A DNA stretch of 64,000 bases from an uncultured Bacilli bacterium (GTDB taxonomy: Bacteria; Bacillota_I; Bacilli_A; RF39; UBA660), in the NCBI GenBank assembly GCA_934190785.1, contig CAKPTA010000001.1, positions 111,540 through 175,539 on the forward strand. Direction: 5' to 3'. Below, piece by piece: positions 1-22,079 of this stretch (positions are counted from its first letter, which is position 1; every line of letters begins with the position of its first letter). The notes under the pieces are model-generated. The model ran no database searches and had not been told where the DNA came from. It saw only the letters and a program-made list of their open reading frames with translations. The translations under genes were made by a program, and so were the position numbers.

Positions 1-177
1 GTTGGAACATATAATCCAATTTGTGAACCAGCTGAAGTTAAAATTGATGAAGAAAAAGCTATTAAATGGTTAAATAATGGAGCTCAACCAACTGATACAG
101 TAAGAGATTTACTAAGAAGTGCTGGTGTTTTAGAAAAATTCCATAATAGTAAAATGACTTCTAAAAAAGGTGAATAA
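1..177 (+). CDS. rpsP: 30S ribosomal protein S16, C-terminal fragment (gene starts upstream of window)
   Basis: Frame 1 reads through from the window edge to TAA at 175-177. The translation ...[21 protein letters not shown]... resembles the S16 C-terminus. A KH-domain gene follows, as in the rpsP-ylqC arrangement. Confidence 0.55.
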
Positions 178-178
178 T

Positions 179-424
179 ATGGATTTAGTAGCACTAACAA
201 AATTTTTAGTTGAAAGTATTGTAAAGGATCCTGATGCTATAACTGTAAAGATGTTTTCTGAAGATGAAAATGAAATTATTATTCAGGTTTTAGTGAAGGA
301 TGAAGATATGGGTGCTGTGATTGGTAAGTCAGGAACTATTGCTAATGCAATTAGAACAATTGTTCAAGCAAGTGCTTATGTTAATCATTTACCAAAAGTA
401 AAAATCAATATTGATAGTTATTAA
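179..424 (+). CDS. KH-domain RNA-binding protein (YlqC/UPF0109 family)
   Basis: VIGKSGTIANAIRTIV is a KH GXXG-type motif. The protein is about 80 aa and sits immediately after rpsP. I prefer ATG 179 to the GTG 170 of the ORF track. Confidence 0.7.
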   Translation: MDLVALTKFLVESIVKDPDAITVKMFSEDENEIIIQVLVKDEDMGAVIGKSGTIANAIRTIVQASAYVNHLPKVKINIDSY

Positions 425-519
425 GAGCAAATGCTCTTTTTTCTTTACATAATCGTATAAAAAATAAAGGGAATTTATAAAAATGTTATTAAATATAATA
501 AAAAAATGGTATAATAATA

Positions 520-1266
520 ATGGTGATTTTGATGGTATGCAAGATAGATGGTATAAATGTACATTATGAGCGTTTAGGAAATAACCAAAAACGAGCAATT
601 ATTTATCTACATGGATGGGGACAAAATACGATTATGATGGAACCAATTGCTAAACCATTTTATGATGAGTTTGATACAATTGTTGTAGATTTACCAGGAT
701 TTGGTGATAGTGAAGAGCCAAAACGTGTGTATACTGTATATGATTATGCAGAGTGTATTTATAAGTTATGTAAAAAATTAAATGTTTCTAATCCAATCTT
801 AATTGGTCACTCTTTTGGAGGAAAGGTTAGTTTAGTATTTGCTAGTAAATATGGAGCTAGTAAATTAATCTTGTTTGGAAGTCCATTTAAAAAAGAAATT
901 GAAAAACTATCTTTAAAAACAAAAATATTAAAACAAGCAAAAAAGATTCCTTTAATTAATCGTTTTTCTGAAATTGCTAAGCGTCATATTGGATCTACTG
1001 ATTATAGAAGTGCTAGTGCTATCATGCGCGAGATTTTAGTTTCAACGGTCAATTTGGACATTACTTATGATGTAAAAAAGATTACTTGCCCAACTTTAAT
1101 TGTATGGGGAGACTTAGATGCTGCTGTACCACTAGAAGATGCATATACATTAGAAGGCTTAATAAAAGATGCTGCGGTAATTGTTTATGAAGGTTGCACA
1201 CATTATGCATATTTAGAAAATTTAGGTCAAACAATTAGTATTATTGGAAGTTTTGTAAGGAGTTGA
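520..1266 (+). CDS. alpha/beta-fold hydrolase
   Basis: IYLHGWGQN and GHSFGG (nucleophile elbow GxSxG), 248 aa. Confidence 0.6.
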   Translation: MVILMVCKIDGINVHYERLGNNQKRAIIYLHGWGQNTIMMEPIAKPFYDEFDTIVVDLPGFGDSEEPKRVYTVYDYAECIYKLCKKLNVSNPILIGHSFGGKVSLVFASKYGASKLILFGSPFKKEIEKLSLKTKILKQAKKIPLINRFSEIAKRHIGSTDYRSASAIMREILVSTVNLDITYDVKKITCPTLIVWGDLDAAVPLEDAYTLEGLIKDAAVIVYEGCTHYAYLENLGQTISIIGSFVRS

Positions 1267-1270
1267 TTAT

Positions 1271-2863
1271 ATGTTACCACAATTTATTGTTTCTTTATTA
1301 ATGGCATATGTATATATTATTATTAAATCTAAAAAATCATATCATATGTTACAACAAAATTGGTATAATGACGGAAATCGTTATATTAATTGGATATTAG
1401 ATAATAAGAGAAAAGTTTTTATAACACCAGAATTATTATTTGTCTTATTTCTACTTTTCTTTATTTTACCAATTAAAGTAAGCATGAGCATTTTCATAAT
1501 TTTTTATATGATAATGTCACTTATATATATAAAAGCAAAAAAGACGGAGCAAGTAAAAAAACCACTTGTATTTACTAGTCGTGTTAAAAGATTATGTGTA
1601 ACAACGATGGTACTTTATTTAATCCCAGTTATATTATTTATCATTTTCTTTAATATAGATTATATTTATCTTTATTATTTATTATTTGGACTTATGATAT
1701 ATTTAAATTATTTTGTTGTTTATATTGCTAATATTGTTAATATGCCAATTGAAGCATCAATACGTTTAAAATTTAAACGTATGGCTATAAAAAAGCTTAA
1801 TAATATGAATCATATGAAAGTTATTGGTATTACTGGAAGCTATGGTAAAACTAGTAGTAAGAATATTTTAAGTGATATTTTAAATGTAAAATATAATGCA
1901 TTACCAACACCAAAGAATTTTAATACTCCACTTGGTATAATCAGAACAATTAATAATGATTTAGATAAATTTAATGATTTATTTATTGCTGAAATGGGAG
2001 CATTTAAAAGAGGTGAAATACAAGAATTATGTGATTTAGTTCATCCTACTTATGGAATTTTAACTAAAATTGGAACAGCACATATGGATAGTTTTGGTTC
2101 ACAAGAGAATATTCAAAAAGGTAAATTTGAATTAATTGAATCACTACCAAGTGATGGAATAGGTATTTTAAATAAAGACGATGAACTTCAAGTATCTTAT
2201 AAGCTAAAAAATAATGTTCGTATAATTTGGATAGGTATAAAAAATGAGGATGCTGATGTTAGAGCTTGTGATATAAAACTTTCTCATACTGGTACTAAAT
2301 TTAATGTTGTATTTAAAGGCGATAAAAAGAAGTATCCATTTGAAACTAAATTACTTGGTGAAGCTAATGTATATAATATTTTAGCTGGTGTAGCGCTAGG
2401 ACATGCTCTTGGTATTTCCATCAATCAGTTACAAGTTGGAGTTAAAAAAGTTTGTCCGGTCGAGCATCGCTTGGAATTAAAAAAATATTTAGATATCAAT
2501 ATTATTGATGATGCATATAATTCTAATCCAGTTGGTTCTAGTATGGCATTAGATGTTTTAGCTCTTATGCCTGGTAAAAAAATAATTGTTACCCCTGGAA
2601 TGATTGAGATGGGTGATATACAGGATGACCTTAATAAGGAATTTGGAAAACACATTGCAAGTGTTTGTGATGAGGTAATTTTAGTAGGGGAGACCCAAAC
2701 TAAACCTATATATGATGGATTAATTAGTAAAAAATATCCTAAAAAGAAAATACATGTTATTAATGATGTTAAATTGGCTTTTCCAATGATGCAACAGTTA
2801 AAAGACAAAGAAACATATGTATTATTAGAAAATGATTTACCTGATATTTTTAATGAAAAATAA
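1271..2863 (+). CDS. murF: UDP-MurNAc-tripeptide--D-Ala-D-Ala ligase MurF with an unusual ~180-aa polytopic membrane N-terminus
   Basis: Mur-ligase P-loop GITGSYGKTS and C-terminal DDAYNSNP motif. The gene lies next to ddl. The N-terminal 180 aa contain about five hydrophobic helices in place of the usual soluble N-domain. Confidence 0.75.
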   Translation: MLPQFIVSLLMAYVYIIIKSKKSYHMLQQNWYNDGNRYINWILDNKRKVFITPELLFVLFLLFFILPIKVSMSIFIIFYMIMSLIYIKAKKTEQVKKPLVFTSRVKRLCVTTMVLYLIPVILFIIFFNIDYIYLYYLLFGLMIYLNYFVVYIANIVNMPIEASIRLKFKRMAIKKLNNMNHMKVIGITGSYGKTSSKNILSDILNVKYNALPTPKNFNTPLGIIRTINNDLDKFNDLFIAEMGAFKRGEIQELCDLVHPTYGILTKIGTAHMDSFGSQENIQKGKFELIESLPSDGIGILNKDDELQVSYKLKNNVRIIWIGIKNEDADVRACDIKLSHTGTKFNVVFKGDKKKYPFETKLLGEANVYNILAGVALGHALGISINQLQVGVKKVCPVEHRLELKKYLDINIIDDAYNSNPVGSSMALDVLALMPGKKIIVTPGMIEMGDIQDDLNKEFGKHIASVCDEVILVGETQTKPIYDGLISKKYPKKKIHVINDVKLAFPMMQQLKDKETYVLLENDLPDIFNEK

Positions 2864-2875
2864 GGAGTGAGTGAA

Positions 2876-4093
2876 ATGAAGATAAAGTTAGGTGTTATAT
2901 TTGGAGGATGTACAGTAGAACATGAGGTAAGTATCATTACAGCTGTACAGGCTATGAATAATATTGATGAGGAAAAATATGATATTATTCCAATTTATAT
3001 AAGTAAGGATAGAATTTGGTATACTGGTAAAATGCTTATGGATATTGATGTATACAGAAATTTTGATACATTAAAGAAATATGCTAAAAAGGTTATGCTA
3101 GTAAAGAAGGAAAATGGGTTCTTTTTGCAAAAGGTAAATGGGATTTTTAAAAGTGATGTAGCAGAATTAGATGTTGTATTTCCAATTGTTCATGGAAAAG
3201 GTGTTGAAGATGGATCTTTAGCTGGATTACTTGATTCTGTTGGTATTCCATATGTTGGACCAAATGTATTAGGTGCTGCTTTAGGACAAGATAAAGTTGT
3301 CCAAAAACAAGTTATGTCTTCTTGTAACATAAATATACCAAAATATACATGGTTTTATGATACTGATTATTTGAATGACAATAAAGATATTTTAGCTAAT
3401 ATTAAAGCTCTAAAATATCCAGTTATTGTAAAACCAGCAAATCTTGGAAGTAGTATTGGAATTTCTGTTGCTAAGAATGAAACTGAAGTAGATAATTGCA
3501 TAATGGAAGCTATTAAATATGATAACAAAATTGTTGTTGAAGAGATGATTCCTAATTTAATGGAAGTTAATTGTAGCGTTCTTGGTAACTATGAATATCA
3601 AGAAACAAGTGCAATTGATGAAATGTTAACTAGTCATGACTTCTTAACATATAATGACAAATATTTAAGTGGCGGAAAAGGTAAGAATAAAGCTTGTAAA
3701 ACTGCTGGGGCAGGAAAAATGAGTTCAAGTGACCGTGTTATTCCTGCACGAATTTCTAGTGAAGTAGAAGCAACTGTAAGAGATATGGCTAAAGCCACAT
3801 TTAAAGCACTAAATTTGAGTGGTATTGCAAGAATTGACTTTTTAATTAATAAAAAAACAAACGAAGTATATGTTAATGAACCTAATACAATTCCTGGATC
3901 GCTAGCATTCTATTTATGGAGTTATACTGGTAAAGAATATAAAGATCTTTTAGATGACGCAATTACATTATGTATTAAGAGTTATAAAAATGATGCTAAA
4001 AAAGTATCTTCATTTGAATCAAATATCTTAAGTAATTTTAGTGGCTCAAAAGGATTGAAAGGTATAAAAGGTAGTAAAGGTAAATTAATGTAA
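2876..4093 (+). CDS. ddl: D-alanine--D-alanine ligase
   Basis: MKIKLGVIFGGCTVEHEVS is the classic Ddl N-terminus, and there is an ATP-grasp body. AAGGAG sits 8 nt upstream of ATG 2876. The C-terminus carries a Gly/Lys-rich tail (GSKGLKGIKGSKGK). Confidence 0.85.
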   Translation: MKIKLGVIFGGCTVEHEVSIITAVQAMNNIDEEKYDIIPIYISKDRIWYTGKMLMDIDVYRNFDTLKKYAKKVMLVKKENGFFLQKVNGIFKSDVAELDVVFPIVHGKGVEDGSLAGLLDSVGIPYVGPNVLGAALGQDKVVQKQVMSSCNINIPKYTWFYDTDYLNDNKDILANIKALKYPVIVKPANLGSSIGISVAKNETEVDNCIMEAIKYDNKIVVEEMIPNLMEVNCSVLGNYEYQETSAIDEMLTSHDFLTYNDKYLSGGKGKNKACKTAGAGKMSSSDRVIPARISSEVEATVRDMAKATFKALNLSGIARIDFLINKKTNEVYVNEPNTIPGSLAFYLWSYTGKEYKDLLDDAITLCIKSYKNDAKKVSSFESNILSNFSGSKGLKGIKGSKGKLM

Positions 4094-4096
4094 AAA

Positions 4097-4119
4097 AATG
4101 ACTTTATAGTCATTTTTTT
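4097..4119. terminator. bidirectional rho-independent terminator (aatgact-ttat-agtcatt) flanked by A and T runs
   Basis: Perfect 7-bp stem between convergent ddl and the 4110..4703 gene. Confidence 0.5.
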
Positions 4120-4703
4120 GCTTTTCTACCAAATAATTTGCTTTTAACTTTAATTGCATCTACATCATTCCCTAGACTGATGTTATCTTTTTCTATTTTG
4201 TTATTATTTTGATTTTGTCTTTTAATAGTTAAAGTATATCTATAAAAATATTCTAAACTAAATTCAATTTTTAAATTTCTATTATTTACAATAATATCTA
4301 TTAAGTTATTTTTTAATTTATTGAGAATGTGTTCTTGGTTTTGATAGATCTCTTTGGTATTAATAGGTTCAAGATTAACCTGTATATTATAATTTGAACC
4401 AACATACCAAATTGGATTTTCACACATTGAGAATGCTATATCAACGGCAATTTTAGCGTTTATATTATTATCACTCTTTATTATCTTATGTTTATTAATA
4501 GCTTTTACTATACAAGTAGCATCATTAAATGTATCCAACTCTTTTTCTTCATTATTTGGTACTAGCATATTATAAAGTCTTTGGTATTCTTCTTCAATCT
4601 TGTCTATTGTAGTAGGGTTAATAGAGTTGGTATTAATATTATTTTCTTTTAGTGCATCACAAATTAAATTTTCAATATCTTTTTTACTTTTCATAAACAT
4701 CAC
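4110..4703 (-). CDS. hypothetical protein
   Basis: 197-aa ORF with no recognised motif. Confidence 0.4.
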   Translation of the reverse strand: MMFMKSKKDIENLICDALKENNINTNSINPTTIDKIEEEYQRLYNMLVPNNEEKELDTFNDATCIVKAINKHKIIKSDNNINAKIAVDIAFSMCENPIWYVGSNYNIQVNLEPINTKEIYQNQEHILNKLKNNLIDIIVNNRNLKIEFSLEYFYRYTLTIKRQNQNNNKIEKDNISLGNDVDAIKVKSKLFGRKAKK

Positions 4704-4827
4704 CTGCAGTCATATTATAACATTGTAAATTAAAGTTGTAAAATATAAGTAAAATTTTGATAAAATATTGTATTTCAATAAATAAAAATATCTAACATAA
4801 ATGTGTTAGATATTTAAATACATCTAA

Positions 4828-4903
4828 TGGTGGACTGTTAGGGATTCGAACCCTAGACCCACTGATTAAGAGTCAGTTGCTCTACCAACTGAGCTAACAG
4901 TCC
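4828..4903 (-). tRNA. tRNA-Lys (anticodon CTT)
   Basis: The reverse complement GGACTGTTAGCTCAGTTGGTAGAGC...CTCTTAA...GGTTCGAATCCC...CCA folds as a cloverleaf. Anticodon loop is cTCTTaa. It is very similar to Bacillus tRNA-Lys. Confidence 0.85.
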
Positions 4904-4960
4904 AATAATGACTATTTAAGTATATCATATTTTTCTTAAATGTCAATTACTATTTTAAAA

Positions 4961-5620
4961 TTAAGTCATTCTTTTAAGATATTTTACTTTTATTTTTTCA
5001 TTTGTTCTTTTTAAAATACGAGATGTATATGACTGAGTATATCCAAATATATCAGCAATTTCATCTTGTTTGTATCTTCTATCTGAATCAAAGCCATAGT
5101 ATTTTTTAACAACCTCTTTTTCAAGTGGTGGAAGGGAATCTATAATTTCCCTAATTACAGTTTTTTCGACATCTGCTTCAACTTTATCTTCTATAAGTCC
5201 ATTTGAATCTTGCACCATTTCTTCAAGTGTAAGATCTGATATGTCTCTATCACGTGAAATAATGGGCTCATTTAAACTAGCAACTTGATCGTGCTTTTTA
5301 TTTTTTCTTAGATACATAAATATTTCATTTTGAATACAAGTTGAAACATATGTAGCAAATTTAATATTAATGTTTGGGTTAAAAGAATCTACTCCTTTTA
5401 TTAATCCTAATATTGAAACACTTACTAATTCTTCTAACATTTCGCCCTTTGATCCAGCTATTTTTTGAGCATAGGATATGGCTAATCTTAAATTATGTAG
5501 AATTAATTTCTCTCTAGCTTCTGCCTCTCCATTTTCATAATCATGAGCTAATTTCATATTTTCTTCTTGTGGTAAAACTTTATATTTTTTTAAATCATAA
5601 TTTAAATTGTAACTATACAT
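4961..5620 (-). CDS. sigma-70 family sporulation-type sigma factor (SigE/SigK-like)
   Basis: KLILHNLRL and FATYVSTCIQNEIFMYLRKNK match region 2 of SigE/SigK. A region-4 HTH is near the C-terminus. There is a short (~12 aa) N-terminal extension. Confidence 0.7.
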   Translation of the reverse strand: MYSYNLNYDLKKYKVLPQEENMKLAHDYENGEAEAREKLILHNLRLAISYAQKIAGSKGEMLEELVSVSILGLIKGVDSFNPNINIKFATYVSTCIQNEIFMYLRKNKKHDQVASLNEPIISRDRDISDLTLEEMVQDSNGLIEDKVEADVEKTVIREIIDSLPPLEKEVVKKYYGFDSDRRYKQDEIADIFGYTQSYTSRILKRTNEKIKVKYLKRMT

Positions 5621-5778
5621 TTTCTCTCTCCTTTGATGTGCCTTTCCATTTTACATAAATATTTTAATTAAATTGGTTAATTTACATAAACTGCTATTTT
5701 TGGTGTCTAAACAGAATAGTGATTGTAAAATTCGACAATATTTGATATAATGCTAAAGAGTTAGTGTGAGGTGTATGT

Positions 5779-6354
5779 ATGAACATAAAAAATAAAAAGG
5801 TCTTTATAATTATATTAGTAGTAGTCTTAATTATTACAGCTATTTCTTTATTAACAGTTAATTTTGTTAAAAATATGAAAAAAGATAGAGAAGAAACAAT
5901 AAAAACAATGGAACAAATAAAAGAAAGTTATAAAACTTTTTCACCACTAGTTGAAGAATTTAGCGGAAAAAGAACTGAATACTATACAATGAAGGATGAA
6001 AAATTATATTTAGAGGATATCTCAGATAGTAAAGAAGAAATTATTTCTTTTATGGATGAATATTCAGCTCTTGTACATAAAGTTCATGATGATTCTAAAT
6101 ATCTTGAAGATAATTGTATGAGAAAATACTCTGATAATAGAGTTAATAATACATGTAATTTATTTAAACAAGGATACGAAGCAATTATGAATTACTATAT
6201 GACTGATATAAAAGGATATAATGAATTCGTAACTTCTTATAATGAATGGCCAAAAGAAAGTAATAGCGCACTAAAGCTAGATAAAATAGAGTTTGATTTA
6301 TATAGCGATTATATTGATTATGATAAAGATGGTAGTTTTCTAGGAGGAAAGTAA
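5779..6354 (+). CDS. hypothetical membrane-anchored protein
   Basis: N-terminal TM (VFIIILVVVLIITAISLLTV). Promoter-like TTCGACA...TATAAT upstream. Confidence 0.4.
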   Translation: MNIKNKKVFIIILVVVLIITAISLLTVNFVKNMKKDREETIKTMEQIKESYKTFSPLVEEFSGKRTEYYTMKDEKLYLEDISDSKEEIISFMDEYSALVHKVHDDSKYLEDNCMRKYSDNRVNNTCNLFKQGYEAIMNYYMTDIKGYNEFVTSYNEWPKESNSALKLDKIEFDLYSDYIDYDKDGSFLGGK

Positions 6355-6355
6355 A

Positions 6356-7426
6356 ATGCATAAAGAGAAAAAAGAAGTAAAAGAAAAAAAGAAAATGAAA
6401 AAATCAACTAAGATTATAATTACTGTTTTTATTAGTCTTTTTGTCCTAGGATGTGGTAGTGGGTTAACACTTTTATATGGACCATGGTCTGGATTTAGAA
6501 ATTGGCTTATTACAACAGCTATGACTACTATGAATCATCAATATTTAGCAACGTGGTTTTATAGTGATGAGACAATAGCTAAAGTATTAGATCAAAATCA
6601 AGTTATTGAATCTGGAGAAGAAACAGATTCATCATTAATTAAATTTGTTGATTATGATTCTGCTGTTGTTACATATAAAAACAAATATGATAAAGAAGTT
6701 TTAACACGTGATAAAGGTAATGATGACTATAAGGTTATTAATATAAATGAGCCTGGATTAAGAGGTTATTTGGTTGCTATTTATCATCCTGAAAAAGTAA
6801 AAATAGCGACTTCTAAATACATGGGTAAGAGCGGACAAATGTTAGTTGATATTGCGAAAAACAACAACGCTTTAGTTGCTATGAATGCAAGTGGCTTTAT
6901 TGACCCTGAATATAATAGTAATGGTGGAGTACCACATGGTATTGTAATTAAAGATGGTAAAATTATAAGTGATGAAGCAAAACTTAATCAATCTGGCGGA
7001 ATTATAGGATTTACAAAAGACAATAAACTTATTTTAGCCAAAATAAGTGGTAAAGAAGCTATCAATAAAGGTGTTAGAGACGCTGTTGAATTTGGACCAT
7101 TCTTAATTGTTAATGGTGAACCATCATTTATTCGTGGAAATGGTGGTTGGGGAGATGCCCCAAGAAGTGCTATAGGTCAGAGAAAAGATGGAATTGTTTT
7201 ATTCCTTGTTATGGATGGCCGTGATTATACAAGCGGTATTTTAGGTGCTGATATGGTTGATATGACAGAAATACTTATGAATTATGGTGCTTATAATGCT
7301 GCAAATTTAGATGGTGGAACTTCAAGTGGACTTGCTATTAATGGAACATTAATTAACAAACCTGTAAATGGTGGAGGACAACAAATGACTAGAGCTATTC
7401 CAAACGCTTGGATTTTAGAGGCATAA
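6356..7426 (+). CDS. phosphodiester glycosidase family protein (DUF2233/NAGPA-like), secreted or anchored
   Basis: Signal/TM N-terminus. GNGGWGDAPRSAIGQ and NLDGGTSSG motifs are typical of the family. Confidence 0.55.
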   Translation: MHKEKKEVKEKKKMKKSTKIIITVFISLFVLGCGSGLTLLYGPWSGFRNWLITTAMTTMNHQYLATWFYSDETIAKVLDQNQVIESGEETDSSLIKFVDYDSAVVTYKNKYDKEVLTRDKGNDDYKVININEPGLRGYLVAIYHPEKVKIATSKYMGKSGQMLVDIAKNNNALVAMNASGFIDPEYNSNGGVPHGIVIKDGKIISDEAKLNQSGGIIGFTKDNKLILAKISGKEAINKGVRDAVEFGPFLIVNGEPSFIRGNGGWGDAPRSAIGQRKDGIVLFLVMDGRDYTSGILGADMVDMTEILMNYGAYNAANLDGGTSSGLAINGTLINKPVNGGGQQMTRAIPNAWILEA

Positions 7427-7452
7427 GAAAACATGTTCATTGAACATGTTTT

Positions 7453-8040
7453 TTATATTAAAATATCTTTATAAAGAATATTAATGGATAAGCAAAGCGG
7501 CTTTAATTTTTCTAAATATATATTAGTTTCTATATCAGATATTAGTAATATATATTTAACTTTATCGTCAAATATTTTTTCTTTAATTTCTATATCATCT
7601 AAGATATAATCAACTTTCTTAACATTATCATAGGGTAGTATTATTTCAATTTCATTACCAATGATTTCATCTCTTAAACTAGCTTTTTTTAAAGCTTCTA
7701 TTACAGAGTTTGAATATGCTCTAACAAGACCACCAGCACCAAGTTTAATACCTCCAAAATATCTAATTACGATAGCAAGAATATGGTTACAATTATTTTC
7801 TTCTAATACATGTAAAATAGGCATACCAGCAGTACCACCCGGTTCACCATCATCGGAAAATCTTTTTACTTGGTTAACTATGTATGCATAACAATAGTGA
7901 GTAGCACCCTTATACTCATCTCTTATTTTTTTTAAAATAGTGTTTACTTCATCAGTAGATTTGATATGGCATAGTAAAGTGATAAATTTGGATTTTTGAA
8001 TTATATATTCATCTTCTACATTATTCCATAGCGCTTTCAT
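7453..8040 (-). CDS. yigZ: YigZ/IMPACT family protein
   Basis: GEPGGTAGMPILHVL is the IMPACT-N signature. Confidence 0.75.
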   Translation of the reverse strand: MKALWNNVEDEYIIQKSKFITLLCHIKSTDEVNTILKKIRDEYKGATHYCYAYIVNQVKRFSDDGEPGGTAGMPILHVLEENNCNHILAIVIRYFGGIKLGAGGLVRAYSNSVIEALKKASLRDEIIGNEIEIILPYDNVKKVDYILDDIEIKEKIFDDKVKYILLISDIETNIYLEKLKPLCLSINILYKDILI

Positions 8041-8162
8041 AAAATCACCATTAACATTATAACAAAATTAGTATAAAAAGCAATATTGAAGTCATAATGG
8101 TTATTTCCTTGACTATATAAAATCTATGTGATAAAATAAACAATCAAAAAAGGGGTGGCAGT

Positions 8163-9158
8163 ATGAAAAAAGTTAGAGAATATTTAAAACAATTTGAAAA
8201 CAAGTATATTGATTCATTAGATGACTTGTTTATTTTATTTGATAGTGAAAAAATAACTTTTGATCAAAGAAAACAGCTTTTAAAAGAAGTATTAAATCAT
8301 AATGAGCAACTATATAATAAAGAGAAAATAAAAAATAAAGATGTATCTAAAAAAATTATTATCTCAGATAACGAGAACGTTTCTTCTGATATTTTAATCA
8401 ATCATGAAGAGGATAGAAAACAAGTTAAAATGCTTGATGTTAAATCTTATATAGATTTATTAATGAAGTGTAATTCAATAAATGAAATAGAGCGTGTATT
8501 ACCAGCCAGTGATAGTGAGCTATATTTAGAAAAGATTAATCAAATTTTGACTGATTGTTATCAATATAAAGTTGAAGTAATTAACTTTTTAAATTCAAAT
8601 AGTGATTTAAGTGATGAAGAAGTTAGTGAATTTAAAAAAGAAGAAGAATTAATGCAATTTATAATTGAAACTATAAGAGGTATTTTATATGAGAAAGGTG
8701 ATAATTTCTTAGAAATTGAGACTTCTAATAAATTAATATTCCAGGAAAATGGTGACAGAATAATAAGCGCTTTAAAAGATATTGATAGAGAGTATTATGA
8801 TTCTTTTAAAGAATTATTATTATCTATAAAAAATGGAAATTTTAAAAGGAATAGAAGATTTGTAAATAATAACAATATTAATGGTATTTATGAAGTTAAA
8901 AATTTTAAAACAAGAATTTTATATGATCGCATTGATATAAATACATATGTTATAATTGATGCTTTTGTAAAGAAATGTGATATTGATTCCAGATATAGAA
9001 ATCGTATTCAAAATAGTATTCAAGCTTATAGAAAAGAAGAAGCTATTTTGAGAGAAAAAGTAAAGGATGCAAATTTTCTTTCGAAACAAAAAGATATTGA
9101 AGAAGAAGTGTTTGAATTACTTGATAATAGCAAGAAAAAGGTGTTAACAAATGAATGA
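8163..9158 (+). CDS. fusion protein: unknown N-domain plus C-terminal Gp49/HigB-like (RelE-superfamily) toxin-like domain
   Basis: The C-terminus GIYEVKNFKTRILYDRIDINTYVIIDAFVKK...IQAYRKEE aligns with the Gp49-like addiction-module killer pattern G.[FY]ELR....RILY......IVL.hgFVKKTQKTP...A...Y. Confidence 0.45.
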   Translation: MKKVREYLKQFENKYIDSLDDLFILFDSEKITFDQRKQLLKEVLNHNEQLYNKEKIKNKDVSKKIIISDNENVSSDILINHEEDRKQVKMLDVKSYIDLLMKCNSINEIERVLPASDSELYLEKINQILTDCYQYKVEVINFLNSNSDLSDEEVSEFKKEEELMQFIIETIRGILYEKGDNFLEIETSNKLIFQENGDRIISALKDIDREYYDSFKELLLSIKNGNFKRNRRFVNNNNINGIYEVKNFKTRILYDRIDINTYVIIDAFVKKCDIDSRYRNRIQNSIQAYRKEEAILREKVKDANFLSKQKDIEEEVFELLDNSKKKVLTNE

Positions 9159-10872
9159 TTTAGCGGTATTAATAGGTAAAAGAATTAATATTCTAAAAGA
9201 TGAAGAATTTGATAAATTAGATGATGTATGTTTTTTTGAAGCTGCAAATGAAAAAATAGAGTTTTATTCAATACTTAAAAGTAGTATAATTATAGCTAAT
9301 TTTATTGAGGATATTTTAAATAATGATGTTTTAGAAGTAGCATGTCTTGATAACATCCCAAAGATAGATGAAGTGAATATTAGTAATGTAACTAATGAAA
9401 GAACTATTGTTGTTGATATTGAAAAAAAAGTATTTAAAGTTTCGGTTCCAAAGGATTTCAAGGAAAAATTACAAGAAGAAATAAGAAATATTTCTCTAGA
9501 TGATATTGATAGAAGAGATAAAATAATTAATAAATTTATAGAACTAGTTAGAAGTAACTACAATAATTTAAAACCACAATATGATAAATATAATAGAAAT
9601 AAAACAAAAGTACTAGTTACATATATGAAACTAGCTGAGTTCTTTCAACAATTATCACTTAAGTTAGATAATTATATTTCTATACCAGACTTTGTATATG
9701 ATATACCTTATCCTGACGATTTAAAGGCTGTTTTAAATTATATTATTGAATTAAATAAAAAATTGTATTTAGAAGAAAAAAGTAAGGAGAAAAGTGCTAC
9801 TGATTTAGAACAATATGTAGAGTTATTCCTTAAATATGGTTATAACTTTAACAATTTTAATCAAGATGAGAGAGAGCTTATTTTAAATAATAGTTCATTA
9901 TCATCTTTAAGTCACATATTTGAAATTATGCCAATTGATTTAAAAAAACTTAGTAAAAGTGATTTCTTATACATTATTTTGAATACTGATGAAAGAATTG
10001 TTTCTAATATTAAAATGTTAATTTCTAATAACAACATGAAAAAAGAATTTTTTATGAATAATCCTGGCCTTTTTGTTTCAAATTTAAAAGTTAGAATGTC
10101 AGGTAATAGAGAAGTACCACTTTATAATAATTTTATGAATAATATTGATACTTTATTTTCTCTTAATAATTTTGATTATATGATTAGGAATAATTCTGAT
10201 TTATTTTTACTTTCAAATGATATTATAAAAACTAATTTAAATCTTATAACAGAATATGGCATAGATATTTATAATGACTATAATAATAAAATATATAAGG
10301 GAGATATTTTAACTGAGTCTCTATATATGGACTATGTTGATGAATTGATTGAAATGGGATACTATAGTTATATTAAATGTCATCCTGAATATATTAAAGA
10401 AAATACCAAAAATATGATTATTAGACTTAATATTGAAGATAATATAGGTGGAAATATTATTAATGAAAAAGGTAAATTTAAAAGTAGCATAACAAGCGGT
10501 AAAAACTTTTATGTTCCAGATAGTATGTTAGATAATTACCGTATACATAAAGTTAATGAAAATAAAGAAGATATTTATTTTAAACTTTTAGATAATTCTA
10601 AAAGAAATGTTATAAGTAAAGATTTATTAAAGCTTGATATTATTAAATATTTTGATTCAAAATATAAGATAAGTGAATATGAATACTGTATTGATGATAT
10701 TATTATTTCAAGAAAGAAAGTATTAAGAAATATGCAAGCGTTAATTAATTTAAAAGAAAATGATTATAATCATATGTTGCTTTCTTCAATTGAATATAAA
10801 GCTATTATGAATGATAGTGAAATTAAAACTGTATCAGATACTATTTACGGAAAAGTATTATGTAAAAAATAG
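9151..10872 (+). CDS. hypothetical 573-aa protein, translationally coupled to the preceding Gp49-like gene
   Basis: 8-nt overlap with the upstream gene. Asn/Lys/Ile-rich. No HTH or known domain recognised. Confidence 0.35.
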   Translation: MNDLAVLIGKRINILKDEEFDKLDDVCFFEAANEKIEFYSILKSSIIIANFIEDILNNDVLEVACLDNIPKIDEVNISNVTNERTIVVDIEKKVFKVSVPKDFKEKLQEEIRNISLDDIDRRDKIINKFIELVRSNYNNLKPQYDKYNRNKTKVLVTYMKLAEFFQQLSLKLDNYISIPDFVYDIPYPDDLKAVLNYIIELNKKLYLEEKSKEKSATDLEQYVELFLKYGYNFNNFNQDERELILNNSSLSSLSHIFEIMPIDLKKLSKSDFLYIILNTDERIVSNIKMLISNNNMKKEFFMNNPGLFVSNLKVRMSGNREVPLYNNFMNNIDTLFSLNNFDYMIRNNSDLFLLSNDIIKTNLNLITEYGIDIYNDYNNKIYKGDILTESLYMDYVDELIEMGYYSYIKCHPEYIKENTKNMIIRLNIEDNIGGNIINEKGKFKSSITSGKNFYVPDSMLDNYRIHKVNENKEDIYFKLLDNSKRNVISKDLLKLDIIKYFDSKYKISEYEYCIDDIIISRKKVLRNMQALINLKENDYNHMLLSSIEYKAIMNDSEIKTVSDTIYGKVLCKK

Positions 10873-13860: not shown

Positions 13861-15995
13861 AAAGAGTATTTGAATTAGATTTTAGAGGAAGAAAAATTGT
13901 TGTAGAACATGGAGAACTTGCTAAACAAGCAGATGGAGCTGTTTTAGTTCGTTATGGTGATACAGTTATTTTAACTGCAGCTGTTGTTGCTAAAACTGCT
14001 AATTTATTATCTGATTTTTTTCCATTAACAGTTTTATATCAAGAAAAACTTTATTCTGTTGGTAAAATACCAGGTGGTTTTATAAAAAGAGAAGGACGTC
14101 CTACTGAAAATGCTACATTAGCAGCTAGAATGATTGATCGTCCTATGCGACCACTATTTAAGGATGGATTTAAAAATGAAGTACAAATAGTTAATACAGT
14201 TTTATCAGTAGATCAGGATAATTCACCAGAAATGACAGCAATGTTAGGTTCAAGCTTAGCAGTATCAATTAGTAAAATTCCATTTGATGGGCCTATTGCT
14301 GGTGTAAAAGTGGGAAGAGTTAATGGCGAATTTATTATAAATCCAACAAAAGAACAAATGGATAACTCTGATATTGATTTAACGGTAGCAGGAACTAAAG
14401 ACGCTATTAATATGGTAGAGGCAGGTGCAAAAGAAGTAAGTGAAGACGATATGCTTGAAGCTTTAATGTTTGGACATGAAGCTATTAAGGAACTTATTGC
14501 TTTTGAAGAAGAAATAATATCAGCAATTGGTGAAGAAGATATGGAATATGAAACACTAGAGATTACTGATGATTTCAAAAAAGAAATCGAAGTTCTTGCT
14601 GGTCCTACTTTAAATACAGCTATGCGTATTAAAGATAAGTTAGAAAAATATGCTGCTATTGATGCAGCAAAAGAAGATGTTGTTAAAATTTATGAAGAGA
14701 AGGGCGCATCTTTAAGTGAAGATGAGAAAAAAGAATTAATTACTAAGGTAAAATTAGTACTTGAAAATATTGAGTATGAAATATTTAGAAATATAGTTGT
14801 AAAAGAACATACAAGAGCTGATGGAAGAGAAATGGATGAAATTAGACCACTATCAACTGATATTGATCTATTACCTCGAACTCATGGTTCTGCTTTATTT
14901 ACAAGAGGACAAACTCAAGCTTTAGGTGTTGTTACGCTTGGAGCTTTAGGGGAACATCAAATTTTAGATGGACTTTCTATTGAAGACGAGAAAAGATTTA
15001 TGTTACATTACAATTTCCCTCAATTTTCAGTTGGAGAAACAGGACGTTATGGTGCACCTGGAAGAAGAGAAATTGGACACGGTGCTTTAGGAGAACGTGC
15101 ATTGCAACAGGTAATACCAAGTGAGGATGAATTCCCATATACAATTCGTGTTGTTTCCGAAATACTTGAATCCAATGGTTCATCAAGCCAAGCATCTATT
15201 TGTGCTGGTTGTATGGCTTTAATGGCAGCAGGTGTGCCAATAAAAGCTCCAGTAGCAGGTATTGCTATGGGATTAATTACACATGAATCTGATTATACAA
15301 TTTTAACTGATATTCAAGGTATGGAAGATCATCTTGGTGATATGGATTTCAAAGTAGCAGGAACTAGAGATGGAATTTGTGCTCTTCAGATGGATATTAA
15401 AATTAAAGGTATTACAAAACAAATACTAAAAGAAGCTTTAGATAAGGCCAAAAAAGCACGTATGCAAGTTTTAGATGTTATGGAAAAACAAATTGCTGCA
15501 CCTAGAAGCGAAGTTAGTAAATATGCTCCTAAGACAATGTCATTCTATATTAATCCAAATCGTATTAAAGAAGTAATTGGAAAAGGTGGAGAAATGATTA
15601 CTAAGATAATTCTAGAATCAAGCCACGTAAATACAGTAACTGATGTTAATGCTGTAAAAGTTGATATAGAAGAAGATGGTAGAGTAATAATTTATCATAG
15701 TGATAAAGATATTATTGATGAGACAGCACGTCGTATCAAAGATGTTGTAAGAGAAGTAGAAGATGGTGCTATTTACAAAGGAAAAGTAGTAAAAGTTGAA
15801 GATTTTGGATGTTTTGTTGAATTGTGGCCTGGATGTGAAGGACTTGTTCATGTTTCACATTTAGATAGTAAGCGTGTTGAAAAACCTAGTGATGTTGTAT
15901 CTGTTGGTGATGAAATCATTGTAAAAAGTTTAGGTTATGACAAACGTGGAAGACTTAATTTATCAAGAAAAGAAGCTTTGCAAGAAGAAAAATAA
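13857..15995 (+). CDS. pnp: polynucleotide phosphorylase
   Basis: 712 aa with two RNase PH domains, KH and S1. The [15 protein letters not shown] motif is present. Confidence 0.95.
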
Positions 15996-16020
15996 AAAGG
16001 TGACTAATTAGTCGCCTTTT
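15996..16020. terminator. bidirectional terminator shared by convergent pnp and the HIT gene
   Basis: aaaggtgactaattagtcgcctttt hairpin. The HIT-gene stop codon lies inside the stem. Confidence 0.5.
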
Positions 16021-16376
16021 ATTATGTCATAAATTTCAGATGGGTTTTTAATTTCCACATTATTTTCATAATGTGGAACTACATGTAAGTGAAAATGTTT
16101 TACTTCTTCAACATCACCATTATTCTGAGAAAAAGTAATACCTGTACATTTTAGCTTTTCTTCAAGTAATTTTTTAACTTTCAAACCTACTTTAAAAATA
16201 TGCATAACAGTATCACTATCAATATCCATACTGTCAACAAAATGATTCTTAGGGATTATTAAAGTATGACCATTACTAGCTGGATTAATATCTAAGAATG
16301 CTAAAACAGTTTCATCTTCATAAACTTTATAGCTTGGAATTTCTCCATTTATAATTTTACAAAAAATACAGTCCAT
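16008..16376 (-). CDS. HIT-family (histidine triad) hydrolase
   Basis: NGHTLIIPKNHF and HFHLHVVP histidine-triad motif. Confidence 0.8.
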   Translation of the reverse strand: MDCIFCKIINGEIPSYKVYEDETVLAFLDINPASNGHTLIIPKNHFVDSMDIDSDTVMHIFKVGLKVKKLLEEKLKCTGITFSQNNGDVEEVKHFHLHVVPHYENNVEIKNPSEIYDIIKGD

Positions 16377-16557
16377 AATATCATCTCCATATAAAATTAT
16401 ATCAAAAAGAAAAAAAGAGTAAACTCTTTTTGGTGAATATCTGCGAATATTCTATTTAATTATGAGTAAAAATGTACATTTTAAACAAAAAATTGACAAA
16501 AGAGGTAAATAACTATATATTATAAGTGTTGTAAACATTTAGAACGATGGTGATTTT

Positions 16558-19182
16558 ATGATTCAAGATTTTAAAAATAAAACAAAAGAAGAACGCCTTA
16601 TGCTATTATCAAACAGTGAATTTATAAAAAGTATTTTAGCGATGCCACCAGCTTCTCTTAATGCTTTTGGACTTTCCCTTAGTAATGATGAAATGCAAAA
16701 GTTTGTTCCATATGCATCTGATTTTACAAAAGTAGATAGAATTCGTTTTAATGCTTTTTTTAAAACATTTGGTTCAAATATTCAGAAACAATTTTTTGAT
16801 AATGAAGAATTTTTAACGTTTTACATGGAAGCAAAAAAAACACAGCGAGGATATCATCCTTTTATGTCACTTCCTGAGGATGTAAAATTATACGTTTTAG
16901 AGAAACATGAATATATTATGAGTCATATAAATAATCTTGAATATATACATAATTTAAATAAAGAAAATGAAAGATTATATCTTGATTCACTTGATACATA
17001 TATAAAAAATAATTGTAGTGATGAGCTTAAAAACATTCCTATCACTGAGCTTAGATATGTATATAGCTTGTACCATGATAAAGATTATTCTAAAGTTAAA
17101 GCTTGGTGTAAACGGGAATTTCAAATTGAAGATGAAGAATTATTTGAAAGCTTATTTAATTTAATTATTCATAATCATGCTAAACTTACTTATGCCCTAA
17201 CACTAAAAACAGAGTTAGAATGGTTATTATATTTAAAATTTGATATTTATATACCATCATTAGATGAAAAAAGTGAAAATCTAGGTATTAAACTGGATAA
17301 AGAATTATTAAAAAAAGTTAGAGTACATGATGTTAACCGTATATATAGAGAATTAGCTAATACTAATGAATTAAATGATTATGAAAAGCTTATTTTATCA
17401 CTTAATGCGTATAGTGTTTTGGGGCTTGATAATAGTTTAAAACTAGTCCGTGGTAAGTTTTCAAATATAACAGATCGTGCTCTTGATAGATCAGCAAGAT
17501 TAGATTTTACTGATAGTAGAAGAGAATATAGAATAAAACATCAAGATGAGTTTTACGGTTATCAATTATTTGATAAAGTAAAAAGGTGTTTTAAAGATGA
17601 AGAATATACATATCTAGAAAATATTTTTAAAATAAATCATAATGAAATAGATGAGTATATAAATGAAATATATTCCATGTGGAAGAAGAATGAAAAACAT
17701 GAAGAGTGGGATACCTTTTTAGCCCATATAATAAAAACAACAATTACTAGACGTGAGAAAAATTTAGAAAAAGAACACATTGAAAAATTTAAGAAAAATT
17801 ATCTAGCAAAAAGAACACATGATGTAACAATTAAAGATGTATTTATGTGTTTTCGTGATATTGATTTAAGTAATATTTCTTACAATGATAAGGGTAAACC
17901 TATAATTAATCCAGTTTTAGTTACATTTTTACTGGGAAATGAAAAAGTTGATAATGATTGTTTAATTAGACTTGTTTTAAATGGACTAGCTTTTGGACTT
18001 AATTATACGCTTGCAAATACAATTAATCATTTTAAAGCTTTAAATGATATAATTGAAAAATCTAAAGGTAAAATGAATATTAATTCTCTTTTAGATGTAA
18101 TTGATGCTAGTAAAGTATTACTTTATGAATTAGAGCCTGATGAGCAAGATATTTCTCTTGCTACAATAGCTAAAATTCAGTCTTCAAGGCAGCATTGCAA
18201 TGAACCTGTTGATGTAATTATAAGAAAAGTAAAAAAGCTTCATCATGAGAGAAAAAGTAAAGTAGCAGCTACAATTCCATTTGTTCGTGGAATAAGTGCT
18301 AATGGTATTTCTTATGGTATATTAGAGTATGATGATGAAAAAGTACTTACGGCTGGAATAGATACTGGAAGTTGTTTTAGAGTAGGCGCTAGAGGTGAAG
18401 ATTTTCTACGCTATTGTGCATTAGATAAAAATGGCGCTATATTATCCCTTACAACTAAAGAAGGTAATTATTACATTTGTCCACTTATTAGAAATGGGAA
18501 CAGTGTTTATGGAAATGGCATAGATCCAGAACCAAAAACAGAAAAAGAGACAGAGGAACTATTAACAACAATTAAAGAATGTTTCTCTAAAATGTGCCTT
18601 CGAAGTGATAAAAAAGAACCAATTGAAATAGGTGTTATCACTGATTTACATAATAAAAATTATTTTGAACATGAAACTTATGAAAAATTTAATTCTAAGG
18701 AAGCTTTTATGCTAGGAGAATACTGTTATACTGATTACTATAAATCAACAATTCAAAATTATATAATTTATAAAGAAAATAATGCTGAAACTAAATATTA
18801 CAATCCTAACATTGTTTATAGTGAGCCACGCCAAAAACCATATACATATATTTCATCAGTAGAGCAAGATAAAGAACGAATTAACCTTTTAATAAATTCA
18901 ATTGGTTACACAATATATAAAGAGGAATTAATTAAAGAAAAAAGTAGAAAAAAAGCTTTTAAAACATATAAACCATTTAATGTTGATGATTTTAAATCAA
19001 TTAATGGTGCTAAAGATTGGTTTGTAGGAATAAAAGACAACTTAACAGTTGAAAGTAGATGCTTACCATATGATAAAAGAGCAAAAATTGAAATGTATAA
19101 CGCTTTAGCTAAAATAGAAGAACAACTAAATTTTTCAGAAACTATGGAGGAAAATCTATCATGCGAGAAGAAAAAGGTATAA
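16558..19182 (+). CDS. large hypothetical protein (874 aa)
   Basis: Long uninterrupted ORF with TTGACA-17-TATATT promoter upstream. No recognised domain. Confidence 0.4.
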   Translation: MIQDFKNKTKEERLMLLSNSEFIKSILAMPPASLNAFGLSLSNDEMQKFVPYASDFTKVDRIRFNAFFKTFGSNIQKQFFDNEEFLTFYMEAKKTQRGYHPFMSLPEDVKLYVLEKHEYIMSHINNLEYIHNLNKENERLYLDSLDTYIKNNCSDELKNIPITELRYVYSLYHDKDYSKVKAWCKREFQIEDEELFESLFNLIIHNHAKLTYALTLKTELEWLLYLKFDIYIPSLDEKSENLGIKLDKELLKKVRVHDVNRIYRELANTNELNDYEKLILSLNAYSVLGLDNSLKLVRGKFSNITDRALDRSARLDFTDSRREYRIKHQDEFYGYQLFDKVKRCFKDEEYTYLENIFKINHNEIDEYINEIYSMWKKNEKHEEWDTFLAHIIKTTITRREKNLEKEHIEKFKKNYLAKRTHDVTIKDVFMCFRDIDLSNISYNDKGKPIINPVLVTFLLGNEKVDNDCLIRLVLNGLAFGLNYTLANTINHFKALNDIIEKSKGKMNINSLLDVIDASKVLLYELEPDEQDISLATIAKIQSSRQHCNEPVDVIIRKVKKLHHERKSKVAATIPFVRGISANGISYGILEYDDEKVLTAGIDTGSCFRVGARGEDFLRYCALDKNGAILSLTTKEGNYYICPLIRNGNSVYGNGIDPEPKTEKETEELLTTIKECFSKMCLRSDKKEPIEIGVITDLHNKNYFEHETYEKFNSKEAFMLGEYCYTDYYKSTIQNYIIYKENNAETKYYNPNIVYSEPRQKPYTYISSVEQDKERINLLINSIGYTIYKEELIKEKSRKKAFKTYKPFNVDDFKSINGAKDWFVGIKDNLTVESRCLPYDKRAKIEMYNALAKIEEQLNFSETMEENLSCEKKKV

Positions 19183-19373
19183 TAAAAGAATATATAGATG
19201 ATATTAATGGAATAATACTAGGTGAAGATAATATTGAATACTTTTTTTCAAAAGTAAATATGGACTCGGATATAACAGGTAGTGTTAATGAAAAAGTAAG
19301 ATTTATTGTAAAAAATATAAAAACAGAAAATGGATATATTATCCATAAAGCTATCGATATTACAGGGTTATAG
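19161..19373 (+). CDS. small protein with cold-shock-domain-like pattern
   Basis: 70 aa. KGIIKEY..NGIILGEDN.IEYFF...GSVNEKVRFIV...GYIIHKAIDI resembles the CspA layout. Overlaps the upstream gene by 22 nt. Confidence 0.3.
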   Translation: MREEKGIIKEYIDDINGIILGEDNIEYFFSKVNMDSDITGSVNEKVRFIVKNIKTENGYIIHKAIDITGL

Positions 19374-19423
19374 TTTTATTATATAAGAATTCTAAGTACA
19401 CCCACGCTCCACTTGACAAGTGG

Positions 19424-19454
19424 GGGGGGGGTGTATGCTAAAATACACTTTAGA
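19424..19454 (+). promoter_or_regulatory. putative sigma-A promoter (TTGACA ... TAAAAT) with a 19-nt spacer containing a G9 homopolymer
   Basis: -35 TTGACA at 19424-19429 lies inside the perfect palindrome ccacttg-a-caagtgg. -10 TAAAAT at 19449-19454. G run at 19433-19441. Confidence 0.4.
19433..19441. repeat. poly-G homopolymeric tract (9 G)
   Basis: Read directly. This is the only such G/C run in the window. Confidence 0.9.
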
Positions 19455-19472
19455 ATAGAGGTGTATTTTTTT

Positions 19473-21065: not shown

Positions 21066-21080
21066 AAATAATTATTTTTA

Positions 21081-21101
21081 AAGACAATTTTGTCTTTTTT
21101 T
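21081..21101 (+). terminator. rho-independent terminator after the pilin-FGE gene
   Basis: aagacaa-tt-ttgtctt followed by T7. Confidence 0.5.
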
Positions 21102-21125
21102 GTTATACTATTAGCAGTGATATTT

Positions 21126-22079
21126 ATGAATGAATTAGAATTAATAAATGATGTTGTTAGCAAGTATATATCCGATTGTAATATAGAAGATATGAACGAT
21201 TTTAGATTTTTAACGTCTTTAATTGATATTTTTGATAGTAATTATAAGGGAAATAAAGTTAGAGATTTTAAGAAACGTGTTTCTTTGAAACGTTGTCTTA
21301 AATATGCATATGATTTTTTTATGTCTATTAATTCAGACTATGCGGCTTACTTAGAAAAACGTTTAGATGAAGGTGCTTTTATCTTTGAAACTGGTAAAGA
21401 AAAGTATGACAATAATTTATCTATTTCTAGTATTATTGATGGTAAAGCAAAGATGATAGTATATCTTCAAAATACTATTAATGATGCTTATGCAATTACG
21501 CATGAGCTTATTCATGATATGACTATAGAAAGAGAAGGAGTAGATAATTCTGCTACAAGATCTGTATTTTGTGAAATGTTTTCCTTATTGGGAGAAGAAC
21601 TTTTAAGAGATTATTTTGAAAGGACTACTAGGCCAAGTGAGTATGAACTTGAGAGTAAATATAATTTATATGTAATCTCTTGGAAAAATAAAATTATTTT
21701 ATATGAGCTTCATTTAATTGAAACTTATCTTAATAATGGGTATATTCATGCTACTGATTTAGCTTATGGTGATGATGATCTTGTATGCGGTATTGCACTT
21801 GATGATATTTTAGATAATAAGGATTTAAGTTTTCCTTTTGAAGAAAGGTATGTAATAGGTTATTTATTTGCGTGTTATATGCTTGATAGAGTTGATAGTA
21901 ATAGTAAAAATATTAATGAATTTTTTGAACTTAATGATATTATTAATAAATTTAAATTTTTAAATTTGACAAATTATTTAGAACTTGATGTAGTGGATGC
22001 TAGAACATTTGATTTAACAGATGAATCTTATAAAAAGATAGAAAATGCTTTTGTTAAAAGGTTAAAGAAAGTTAGGTAA
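21126..22079 (+). CDS. HExxH...E putative gluzincin metallopeptidase, paralog 1
   Basis: HELIH, then a Glu about 20 aa downstream (FCEMFS). I prefer ATG 21126 because the track TTG start lies inside the terminator. Confidence 0.45.
   Translation: MNELELINDVVSKYISDCNIEDMNDFRFLTSLIDIFDSNYKGNKVRDFKKRVSLKRCLKYAYDFFMSINSDYAAYLEKRLDEGAFIFETGKEKYDNNLSISSIIDGKAKMIVYLQNTINDAYAITHELIHDMTIEREGVDNSATRSVFCEMFSLLGEELLRDYFERTTRPSEYELESKYNLYVISWKNKIILYELHLIETYLNNGYIHATDLAYGDDDLVCGIALDDILDNKDLSFPFEERYVIGYLFACYMLDRVDSNSKNINEFFELNDIINKFKFLNLTNYLELDVVDARTFDLTDESYKKIENAFVKRLKKVR

Follow-up and report, generated by a model that had tools for sequence, protein, structure and literature searches.

Can a Mur ligase be built into the membrane, and what then takes over from the domain by which it holds its substrate? 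The textbooks describe all four Mur ligases as soluble enzymes of the cytoplasm with three domains, of which the N-terminal one binds uridine diphosphate (UDP), the central one is an ATPase and the third is C-terminal. The question is raised by a gene in a stretch of 64,000 nucleotides (nt), referred to below as the window, from an uncultured Bacilli bacterium of the GTDB lineage RF39; UBA660 (assembly GCA_934190785.1, contig CAKPTA010000001.1, positions 111,540 to 175,539). The gene, here called membrane murF, is an uninterrupted open reading frame (ORF) at 1271..2863 of the forward strand, which encodes 530 amino acids plus a stop codon. Its product is clearly derived from MurF, lacks the canonical domain 1 and has an N-terminal membrane domain in its place. 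The reading that we favour, to which we give a probability of roughly 55%, is that it is a D-Ala-D-Ala-adding enzyme integrated in the membrane, in which cytoplasmic loops replace domain 1, in RF39-like low-GC gut Bacilli.

Catalytic domains of the MurF type

The C-terminal two thirds of the protein contain the Mur ligase central and C-terminal domains (Table 1). Among the NCBIfam models the best is TIGR01143 (murF), with 226.6 bits, while the murC and murE models give about 75-77 bits and the MurE-only models at most 88. The seven best sequence matches in the PDB are all MurF enzymes (from Pseudomonas aeruginosa, Escherichia coli, Thermotoga maritima, Acinetobacter baumannii and Streptococcus pneumoniae), and so are the ten best Foldseek matches of the full-length AlphaFold2 model, which has a mean predicted local distance difference test score (pLDDT) of 91.1 and a predicted template modelling score (pTM) of 0.78. 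Judged by these profiles and by the predicted fold, the product is closer to MurF than to MurC, MurD, MurE, Mpl, MurT or FolC, and public records name it MurF or “Mur ligase middle domain protein”.

The P-loop, E241, H271, K285, N301, R400 and the DDAYNSNP motif are invariant in the family alignments, and a Mur ligase that is active is expected to have them. The DDAYNSNP motif aligns to DDSYNANP of the P. aeruginosa and E. coli enzymes and to NDSYNSNP of a canonical MurF encoded at locus L015.

Loss of the canonical domain 1

The N-terminal domain of Mur ligases binds the precursor UDP-N-acetylmuramic acid (UDP-MurNAc)-peptide (PMC10214165). In the product of membrane murF the homology to MurF begins only after this domain, which is about 80 amino acids long. 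The TIGR01143 match spans profile positions 64-402 of 418, the match to the E. coli-type MurF model begins at position 84, and solved MurF structures are aligned from their chain residues 80, 84, 63 and 99 onwards; on the query side, the PDB and profile alignments to MurF begin at residues 161-171. BLASTP against the full canonical MurF from L015 aligns residues 184-464 only, and an hhalign comparison of the profile of the N-terminal part with domain 1 of the same L015 enzyme gives a probability of 0.08%. Since every MurF match begins past domain 1 and the profile comparison finds no homology to it, domain 1 is, on these alignments, replaced and not diverged. The TSRVKR loop of the N-terminal part was considered as a remnant of the DSR motif of the canonical domain and was rejected, there being no hhalign relationship.

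The original prediction had described a MurF in which a polytopic membrane domain of about 180 amino acids replaces the soluble N-terminal domain, with five strongly hydrophobic segments before the P-loop. Both parts of this description hold: the ligase part is best matched by MurF, and AlphaFold2 divides the hydrophobic stretches into five membrane-length helices, at about residues 2-19, 51-66, 68-90, 103-125 and 129-156, which are described below. The prediction further put the anchored ligase beside MraY, where it may lie. With the UDP-binding domain lost, the recognition of the substrate, and possibly the substrate itself, must therefore differ from that of canonical MurF.

Topology and conserved motifs of the membrane domain

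Kyte-Doolittle hydropathy is strongly hydrophobic at residues 1-20, 47-90 and 105-156. AlphaFold2 places helices at residues 2-29/31, 31/37-44, 46-50, 53-64/65, 68-92, 103-125, 129-144 and 146-178, with pLDDT of 93-97 for the membrane domain in the full-length model and a mean of 90.9 when the domain is modelled alone. The last of these is one helix, after which the ATPase domain starts with its first strand. As the fifth transmembrane helix (TM5) in this way runs on as one helix into the ATPase domain, the catalytic domains would lie on the cytoplasmic face.

The charge distribution gives the same orientation. In 17 diverse members of the family at 37-67% identity, the mean number of lysines plus arginines is 5.5 in loop 1 (residues 20-50), 4.6 in loop 3 (residues 91-105) and 5.9 in the segment after TM5 (residues 157-182), and it is 0-0.5 in the two remaining turns, which have 2-4 residues each. 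By the positive-inside rule the protein is predicted to have five TM helices, its N-terminus outside, and its C-terminus with the ligase inside; hardly any of it would be exposed on the outer side of the cell.

The conserved residues lie on the cytoplasmic side of this predicted arrangement. In loop 1, Tyr32 and Trp41 are invariant, and His25, Gln28 and Tyr38 are nearly so; in loop 3, Arg104 and Arg107 are invariant, and Lys97, Leu99 and Thr102 are nearly invariant. Tyr32, Trp41, Arg104 and Arg107, together with Pro159 and Glu161 of the junction, make up all the invariant residues of the domain, every one of which is within the three predicted cytoplasmic segments; of the nearly invariant residues, Thr111 alone is outside them, located at the cytoplasmic start of TM4. 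Residues 157-182 are the junction of the domain swap, where the homology to canonical MurF begins and the long helix passes from TM5 into the ligase.

No Pfam family matches residues 1-186 and no NCBIfam model matches the membrane domain. At permissive thresholds, Pfam gave no more than scattered hydrophobic noise for 20 members of the family, in which the commonest hit was DAGK_prokar (6 of 20, E = 0.18), and no fold relative of the domain was found in the PDB. By these comparisons of sequence and modelled fold, the domain, of about 158 amino acids, matches no described membrane-domain family.

The membrane domain could also be a passive anchor, by which a MurF that acts on UDP-MurNAc-tripeptide is docked to MraY, MurG, FtsW/RodA or MurJ; the domain would then bind no substrate and the central and C-terminal domains would recognize the nucleotide. 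It has been proposed that Mur enzymes come together on scaffolds at the membrane, and natural fusions of them occur (PMC10214165, PMC6420597), murG, mraY and ftsW are found near the gene, and the outer loops have merely 2-4 residues, so that the domain is not an external sensor. A plain tether, however, needs neither five helices nor invariant Tyr, Trp and Arg residues in two cytoplasmic loops, and docking leaves unexplained why domain 1 was lost and not retained behind an added anchor. We regard this explanation as possible and rather unlikely; if it were true, the protein would belong to a membrane-bound assembly line of precursors.

Translation start, conservation and selection

An in-frame pair of ATG codons at 1805 and 1814 (Met179 and Met182) immediately precedes the P-loop, and a few database gene calls (P0066 and similar entries) begin at Met26. 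The hydrophobic N-terminus could accordingly be thought an artefact of a wrong start or of a fusion, being untranslated or a separate small membrane protein, with the ligase beginning near Met179 or Met182. A strong Shine-Dalgarno sequence precedes ATG 1271, sitting within the final codons of the upstream gene, and no site of the Shine-Dalgarno type was found before ATG 1805 or ATG 1814. An ATG aligned with ATG 1271 is present in all eight orthologues examined, and in most of them a site of the AGGAG or GGAGG type lies at most 25 nt upstream of it (L004 has AAAGGA only). Distant family members have no Met aligned with the internal position, and a product that began there would be a MurF without any N-terminal domain.

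Proteins consisting of the N-terminal domain alone were sought and not found: the short matches inspected are contig-end or frameshifted fragments. The N-terminal 182 amino acids, used alone as query, have 480 matches with E <= 0.001 among 1.84 billion cluster representatives, and the full-length ones are all proteins of 521-559 amino acids with an identical architecture. Among 5.8 billion proteins searched, those that match over all 530 amino acids at 64-99% identity form at least 120 clusters, and a profile search adds further clusters of the same length at 43-57% identity. Fourteen genome loci from different species (L001-L014) carry membrane murF; they belong to metagenome-assembled genomes (MAGs) labelled Bacilli, Tenericutes, Mollicutes, Candidatus Scybalousia or Erysipelotrichaceae bacterium. 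The look-ups of the protein clusters give MAG labels only (Bacilli, Tenericutes/Mycoplasmatota, Firmicutes, Bacillales bacterium). We take the labels of these related MAGs to correspond to the uncultured order RF39.

Ratios of nonsynonymous to synonymous substitution rates (dN/dS) were calculated by the Nei-Gojobori method on the eight loci that were also used for the start codons; dS is near saturation throughout, so that the values are rough and their direction is clear. For residues 1-160 the four closer pairs give dN/dS values of 0.26-0.29, compared with 0.08-0.17 for the ligase part of the same pairs (about 0.08 in three of the four); the N-terminal domain has 0.33-0.58 in four pairs that are more distant and have saturated dS. 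On these comparisons the N-terminal extension is conserved and under purifying selection, and is not there by chance.

An artefact of the start codon is therefore very improbable indeed. The frame is continuous from ATG 1271 and translation most likely begins at that codon, as the original prediction had it; the orthologues, with which it proposed to compare the extension, carry it at full length, and they neither begin at the internal Met nor have an unconstrained upstream region.

Operon with ddl and the other Mur ligases

Membrane murF stands in an operon between a gene for an alpha/beta-hydrolase and ddl, the D-alanine--D-alanine ligase gene, which follows after a gap of 3-12 nt. The three stand side by side in every one of the 14 genome loci, as well as in L020 and in L021, whose member is 43-45% identical, and from this gene order they look like a conserved functional unit. 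At L016, which encodes an identical protein, the 10 kilobases (kb) upstream have murG, murB, ftsQ/divIB, ftsA, ftsZ, rpsP and khpA directly before the unit, and at L020 mraY and ftsW are within 10 kb of the operon.

No second Mur ligase is present within the 64-kb window, and the flanks of the 14 loci add just one, a canonical MurE. In the related genome of L011 this is a full-length enzyme of the meso-diaminopimelic acid (mDAP) type, from which it follows that the preceding step is conventional and that the integration into the membrane is confined to MurF. Most RF39 have been predicted to make peptidoglycan of the mDAP type, with “missing steps” noted (PMC10868615); per-gene data on murF were not found in the supplement of that study.

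The MurE bears on a further possibility, in which the membrane domain binds undecaprenyl-pyrophosphate and D-Ala-D-Ala is added after MraY, to the tripeptide form of lipid I or lipid II. Such an acceptor would suit the exchange of a UDP-binding domain for a membrane domain that has invariant arginines at the cytoplasmic membrane interface, and MurT/GatD offers a precedent, since MurT is a Mur-ligase relative without domain 1 that acts on lipid II and is among the fold matches of the protein. A canonical soluble MurE means, however, that UDP-MurNAc-tripeptide is made, and this is the simplest acceptor; addition after MraY would also require that MraY uses the tripeptide precursor efficiently, and MurT itself works without a membrane domain. 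We consider a lipid-linked acceptor unlikely, and if it were true, this lineage would have exchanged the order of the two steps of peptidoglycan synthesis that are otherwise the last in the cytoplasm and the first at the membrane. The mechanism that we propose for a membrane-integrated D-Ala-D-Ala-adding enzyme retains the nucleotide precursor.

Proposed mechanism

In canonical MurF, domain 1 holds the UDP end of UDP-MurNAc-tripeptide, and in the protein studied here the five-helix domain of about 158 amino acids would take its place. The rigid helix that continues from TM5 would hold the catalytic domains at the cytoplasmic face of the membrane. The basic and aromatic loops (HMLQQNxY..RY..W and KKPL..T.R..R), together with the NxPIE junction, may be where the diphospho-MurNAc end of the acceptor is bound. 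The co-transcribed Ddl would supply D-Ala-D-Ala, which the central and C-terminal domains would ligate in an ATP-dependent reaction, and the pentapeptide product would be released at the membrane, where MraY could use it.

Several points weigh against this mechanism. The contact between the loops and the substrate is something that we infer from the position and conservation of the residues. Relatives of the Mur ligases that have no domain 1, such as MurT, FolC, CapB/PgsB and cyanophycin synthetase, use substrates that are not linked to UDP, which calls for caution on the acceptor. The TIGR01143 score of the protein is below the curated NCBI cutoff of 288.6, so that by this criterion it is not certified as a MurF; the missing domain 1 is the cause of the low score. 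Finally, the search for Mur ligases covers the 64-kb window and the 10-kb flanks, and a second, canonical murF may lie elsewhere in these genomes.

The last two points would also fit a MurF-derived paralogue whose acceptor is some other molecule associated with the membrane, and which attaches to it either D-Ala-D-Ala or a different amino acid or dipeptide, with a canonical MurF encoded elsewhere; other relatives without domain 1 indeed have other acceptors. The gene is tightly linked to ddl and, at every locus examined, belongs to the cluster of division and cell-wall genes or lies close to it, which speaks against a paralogue, as do the strong constraint on the MurF-like catalytic part (dN/dS about 0.08) and the names given to the protein in public annotations. 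The genomes of RF39 are generally small and reduced, which makes a spare copy less likely. Taken together, a paralogue with another acceptor seems quite improbable, and the protein is better read as the D-Ala-D-Ala-adding enzyme of the precursor pathway.

Comparison with known systems

Canonical MurF enzymes (E. coli 1GG4, P. aeruginosa 4CVK, A. baumannii 4QF5 and T. maritima 3ZL8) share with the product of membrane murF the ATPase and C-terminal domains, the P-loop, the DDxYNxNP motif and the linkage to ddl. They differ from it in having the soluble domain 1 of about 80 amino acids, in place of which membrane murF encodes an unrelated five-helix membrane domain, and in being cytoplasmic, whereas the protein described here is predicted to be integral to the membrane.

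MurT, of the lipid II amidotransferase MurT/GatD, is likewise a relative of the Mur ligases that has no UDP-binding domain, acts at the membrane stage and is a fold match. Unlike the product of membrane murF, it is soluble, has a C-terminal domain of the DUF1727 type and works with GatD as partner. The NCBIfam MurT model gives 22.6 bits for our protein against a cutoff of 800, and no gatD-like gene is adjacent to membrane murF in the neighbourhoods of L016 and L020.

The poly-gamma-glutamate synthase CapB/PgsB is an amide ligase of the Mur-ligase fold with a hydrophobic segment at its N-terminus, by which it is associated with the membrane. Its anchor is one helix, its substrate is another and its operon is pgsBCA, in all of which it differs from the protein studied here, and the NCBIfam scan of the latter gave no detectable match to CapB/PgsB.

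Natural Mur chimeras (MurE-MurF, MurG-MurC, MurC-Ddl and MurF-Alr) also join consecutive steps of cell-wall synthesis (PMC10214165; NCBIfam bifunctional models). The chimeras fuse complete soluble enzymes and keep all domains, while membrane murF swaps a domain for a membrane partner that has no known enzymatic relative. A full-text search of the literature found no description of a membrane-integrated or transmembrane MurF.

Features of the locus and its surroundings

The coordinates of the features are given in Table 1. The window has a G+C content of 27.5%, and in this AT-rich DNA a promoter scan gave fewer matches than the shuffled controls.

Table 1. Features of membrane murF and of the genes around it. 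Positions are those of the window, except for the last row, which refers to locus L011.
Feature	Position	Strand	Residues	Basis or remark
Terminator-like hairpin, closing the upstream rpsP-khpA unit	423..438	+		
alpha/beta-hydrolase, 248 amino acids, GHSFGG nucleophile motif	520..1266	+		Pfam Abhydrolase_1/6; ends 4 nt before membrane murF
Shine-Dalgarno AAGGAG, 8-nt spacer to ATG 1271	1257..1262	+		Read from the sequence
Membrane murF, complete ORF, membrane-integrated MurF-type ligase	1271..2863	+		ORF list; full-length homologues; AlphaFold2 model
N-terminal membrane domain	1271..1744	+	1-158	Hydropathy; AlphaFold2 helices; positive-inside pattern
TM1	1277-1327	+	about 3-19	Hydropathy, AlphaFold2
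Predicted cytoplasmic loop 1, motif HMLQQNxYxxxxRYxxW	1328..1420	+	20-50	Alignments A1, A2, A3
TM2	1421-1468	+	about 51-66	Hydropathy, AlphaFold2
TM3	1475-1540	+	about 69-90	Hydropathy, AlphaFold2
Predicted cytoplasmic loop 3, motif KKPLxxTxRxxR	1541..1591	+	91-107	Alignments A1, A2
TM4	1586-1645	+	about 106-125	Hydropathy, AlphaFold2
TM5	1658-1738	+	about 130-156	Hydropathy, AlphaFold2
Junction, NxPIE motif (P159, E161 invariant)	1739..1816	+	157-182	Starts of PDB/profile alignments; AlphaFold2 helix
ATP-binding P-loop GITGSYGKTS	1826..1855	+	186-195	Sequence; G189, S190, Y191, G192, K193 invariant
Mur ligase central (ATPase) domain, Mur_ligase_M	1829..2398	+	187-376	Pfam PF08245, E = 3.3e-41
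Mur ligase C-terminal domain, Mur_ligase_C	2465..2815	+	399-515	Pfam PF02875, E = 2.2e-10
DDAYNSNP motif	2507-2530	+	413-420	D414, N417, S418, N419, P420 invariant in alignment A3
D-alanine--D-alanine ligase (Ddl), likely start ATG 2876	2867..4093	+		Pfam; NCBIfam NF002528, 289.6 against cutoff 262
Terminator-like hairpin after ddl, end of the three-gene unit	4090..4121	+		
Canonical full-length mDAP-type MurE of a related genome	L011 2151..3542	+		NF001126, 392.7 bits against cutoff 373; about 6.5 kb upstream of membrane MurF

The best NCBIfam model for the alpha/beta-hydrolase is “EstV family lipase”, with 137 bits, which is under the cutoff of 300. The Ddl has 405-408 amino acids, compared with 305-366 positions in the matching NCBIfam Ddl models, and passes the curated Ddl cutoffs. 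It has a Gly/Lys-rich insertion of about 20 amino acids (…KYLSGGKGKNKACKTAGAGKMSSSDRVIPA…), located in the presumed omega-loop region, and a tail rich in Lys and Gly at its C-terminus (…SKGLKGIKGSKGKLM).

Downstream of the unit the window has a gene of the sigma-70 family at 4961..5620 on the reverse strand. Two ORFs of 197 and 191 amino acids, at 4110..4703 (reverse strand) and 5779..6354 (forward strand), have no Pfam match and no meaningful NCBIfam match, and two ORFs of 331 and 573 amino acids, within 8163..10872 on the forward strand, have no match in Pfam, the one database searched with them.

The surroundings of the operon vary at the related loci. At L016, large dockerin-like and cadherin-like proteins are encoded before murG (1..10000), where ftsW, murD or mraY would otherwise stand, so the division and cell-wall cluster is split there. 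At L020, the region just downstream of ddl (14891..21596) encodes a phage-type integrase, helix-turn-helix regulators and a protein with ApeA_NTD1 and HEPN_Apea domains; the region resembles a mobile or defence island that has been inserted, and the window lacks it.

Implications for RF39-like bacteria

A step of peptidoglycan synthesis that is regarded as purely cytoplasmic appears to occur at the membrane in a lineage of abundant gut bacteria. The membrane domain, of about 158 amino acids and without a known relative, would be a new one that recognizes, or at least positions, a cell-wall precursor, and the finding raises the question whether the acceptor is the nucleotide precursor or a lipid intermediate. 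Genome-based claims that RF39-like bacteria miss peptidoglycan steps should be re-examined, because a protein of this kind scores under the curated MurF cutoff. If the favoured reading is right, these bacteria would be a case in nature on which to test an old idea, namely that the synthesis of the precursor is channelled towards the membrane and MraY.

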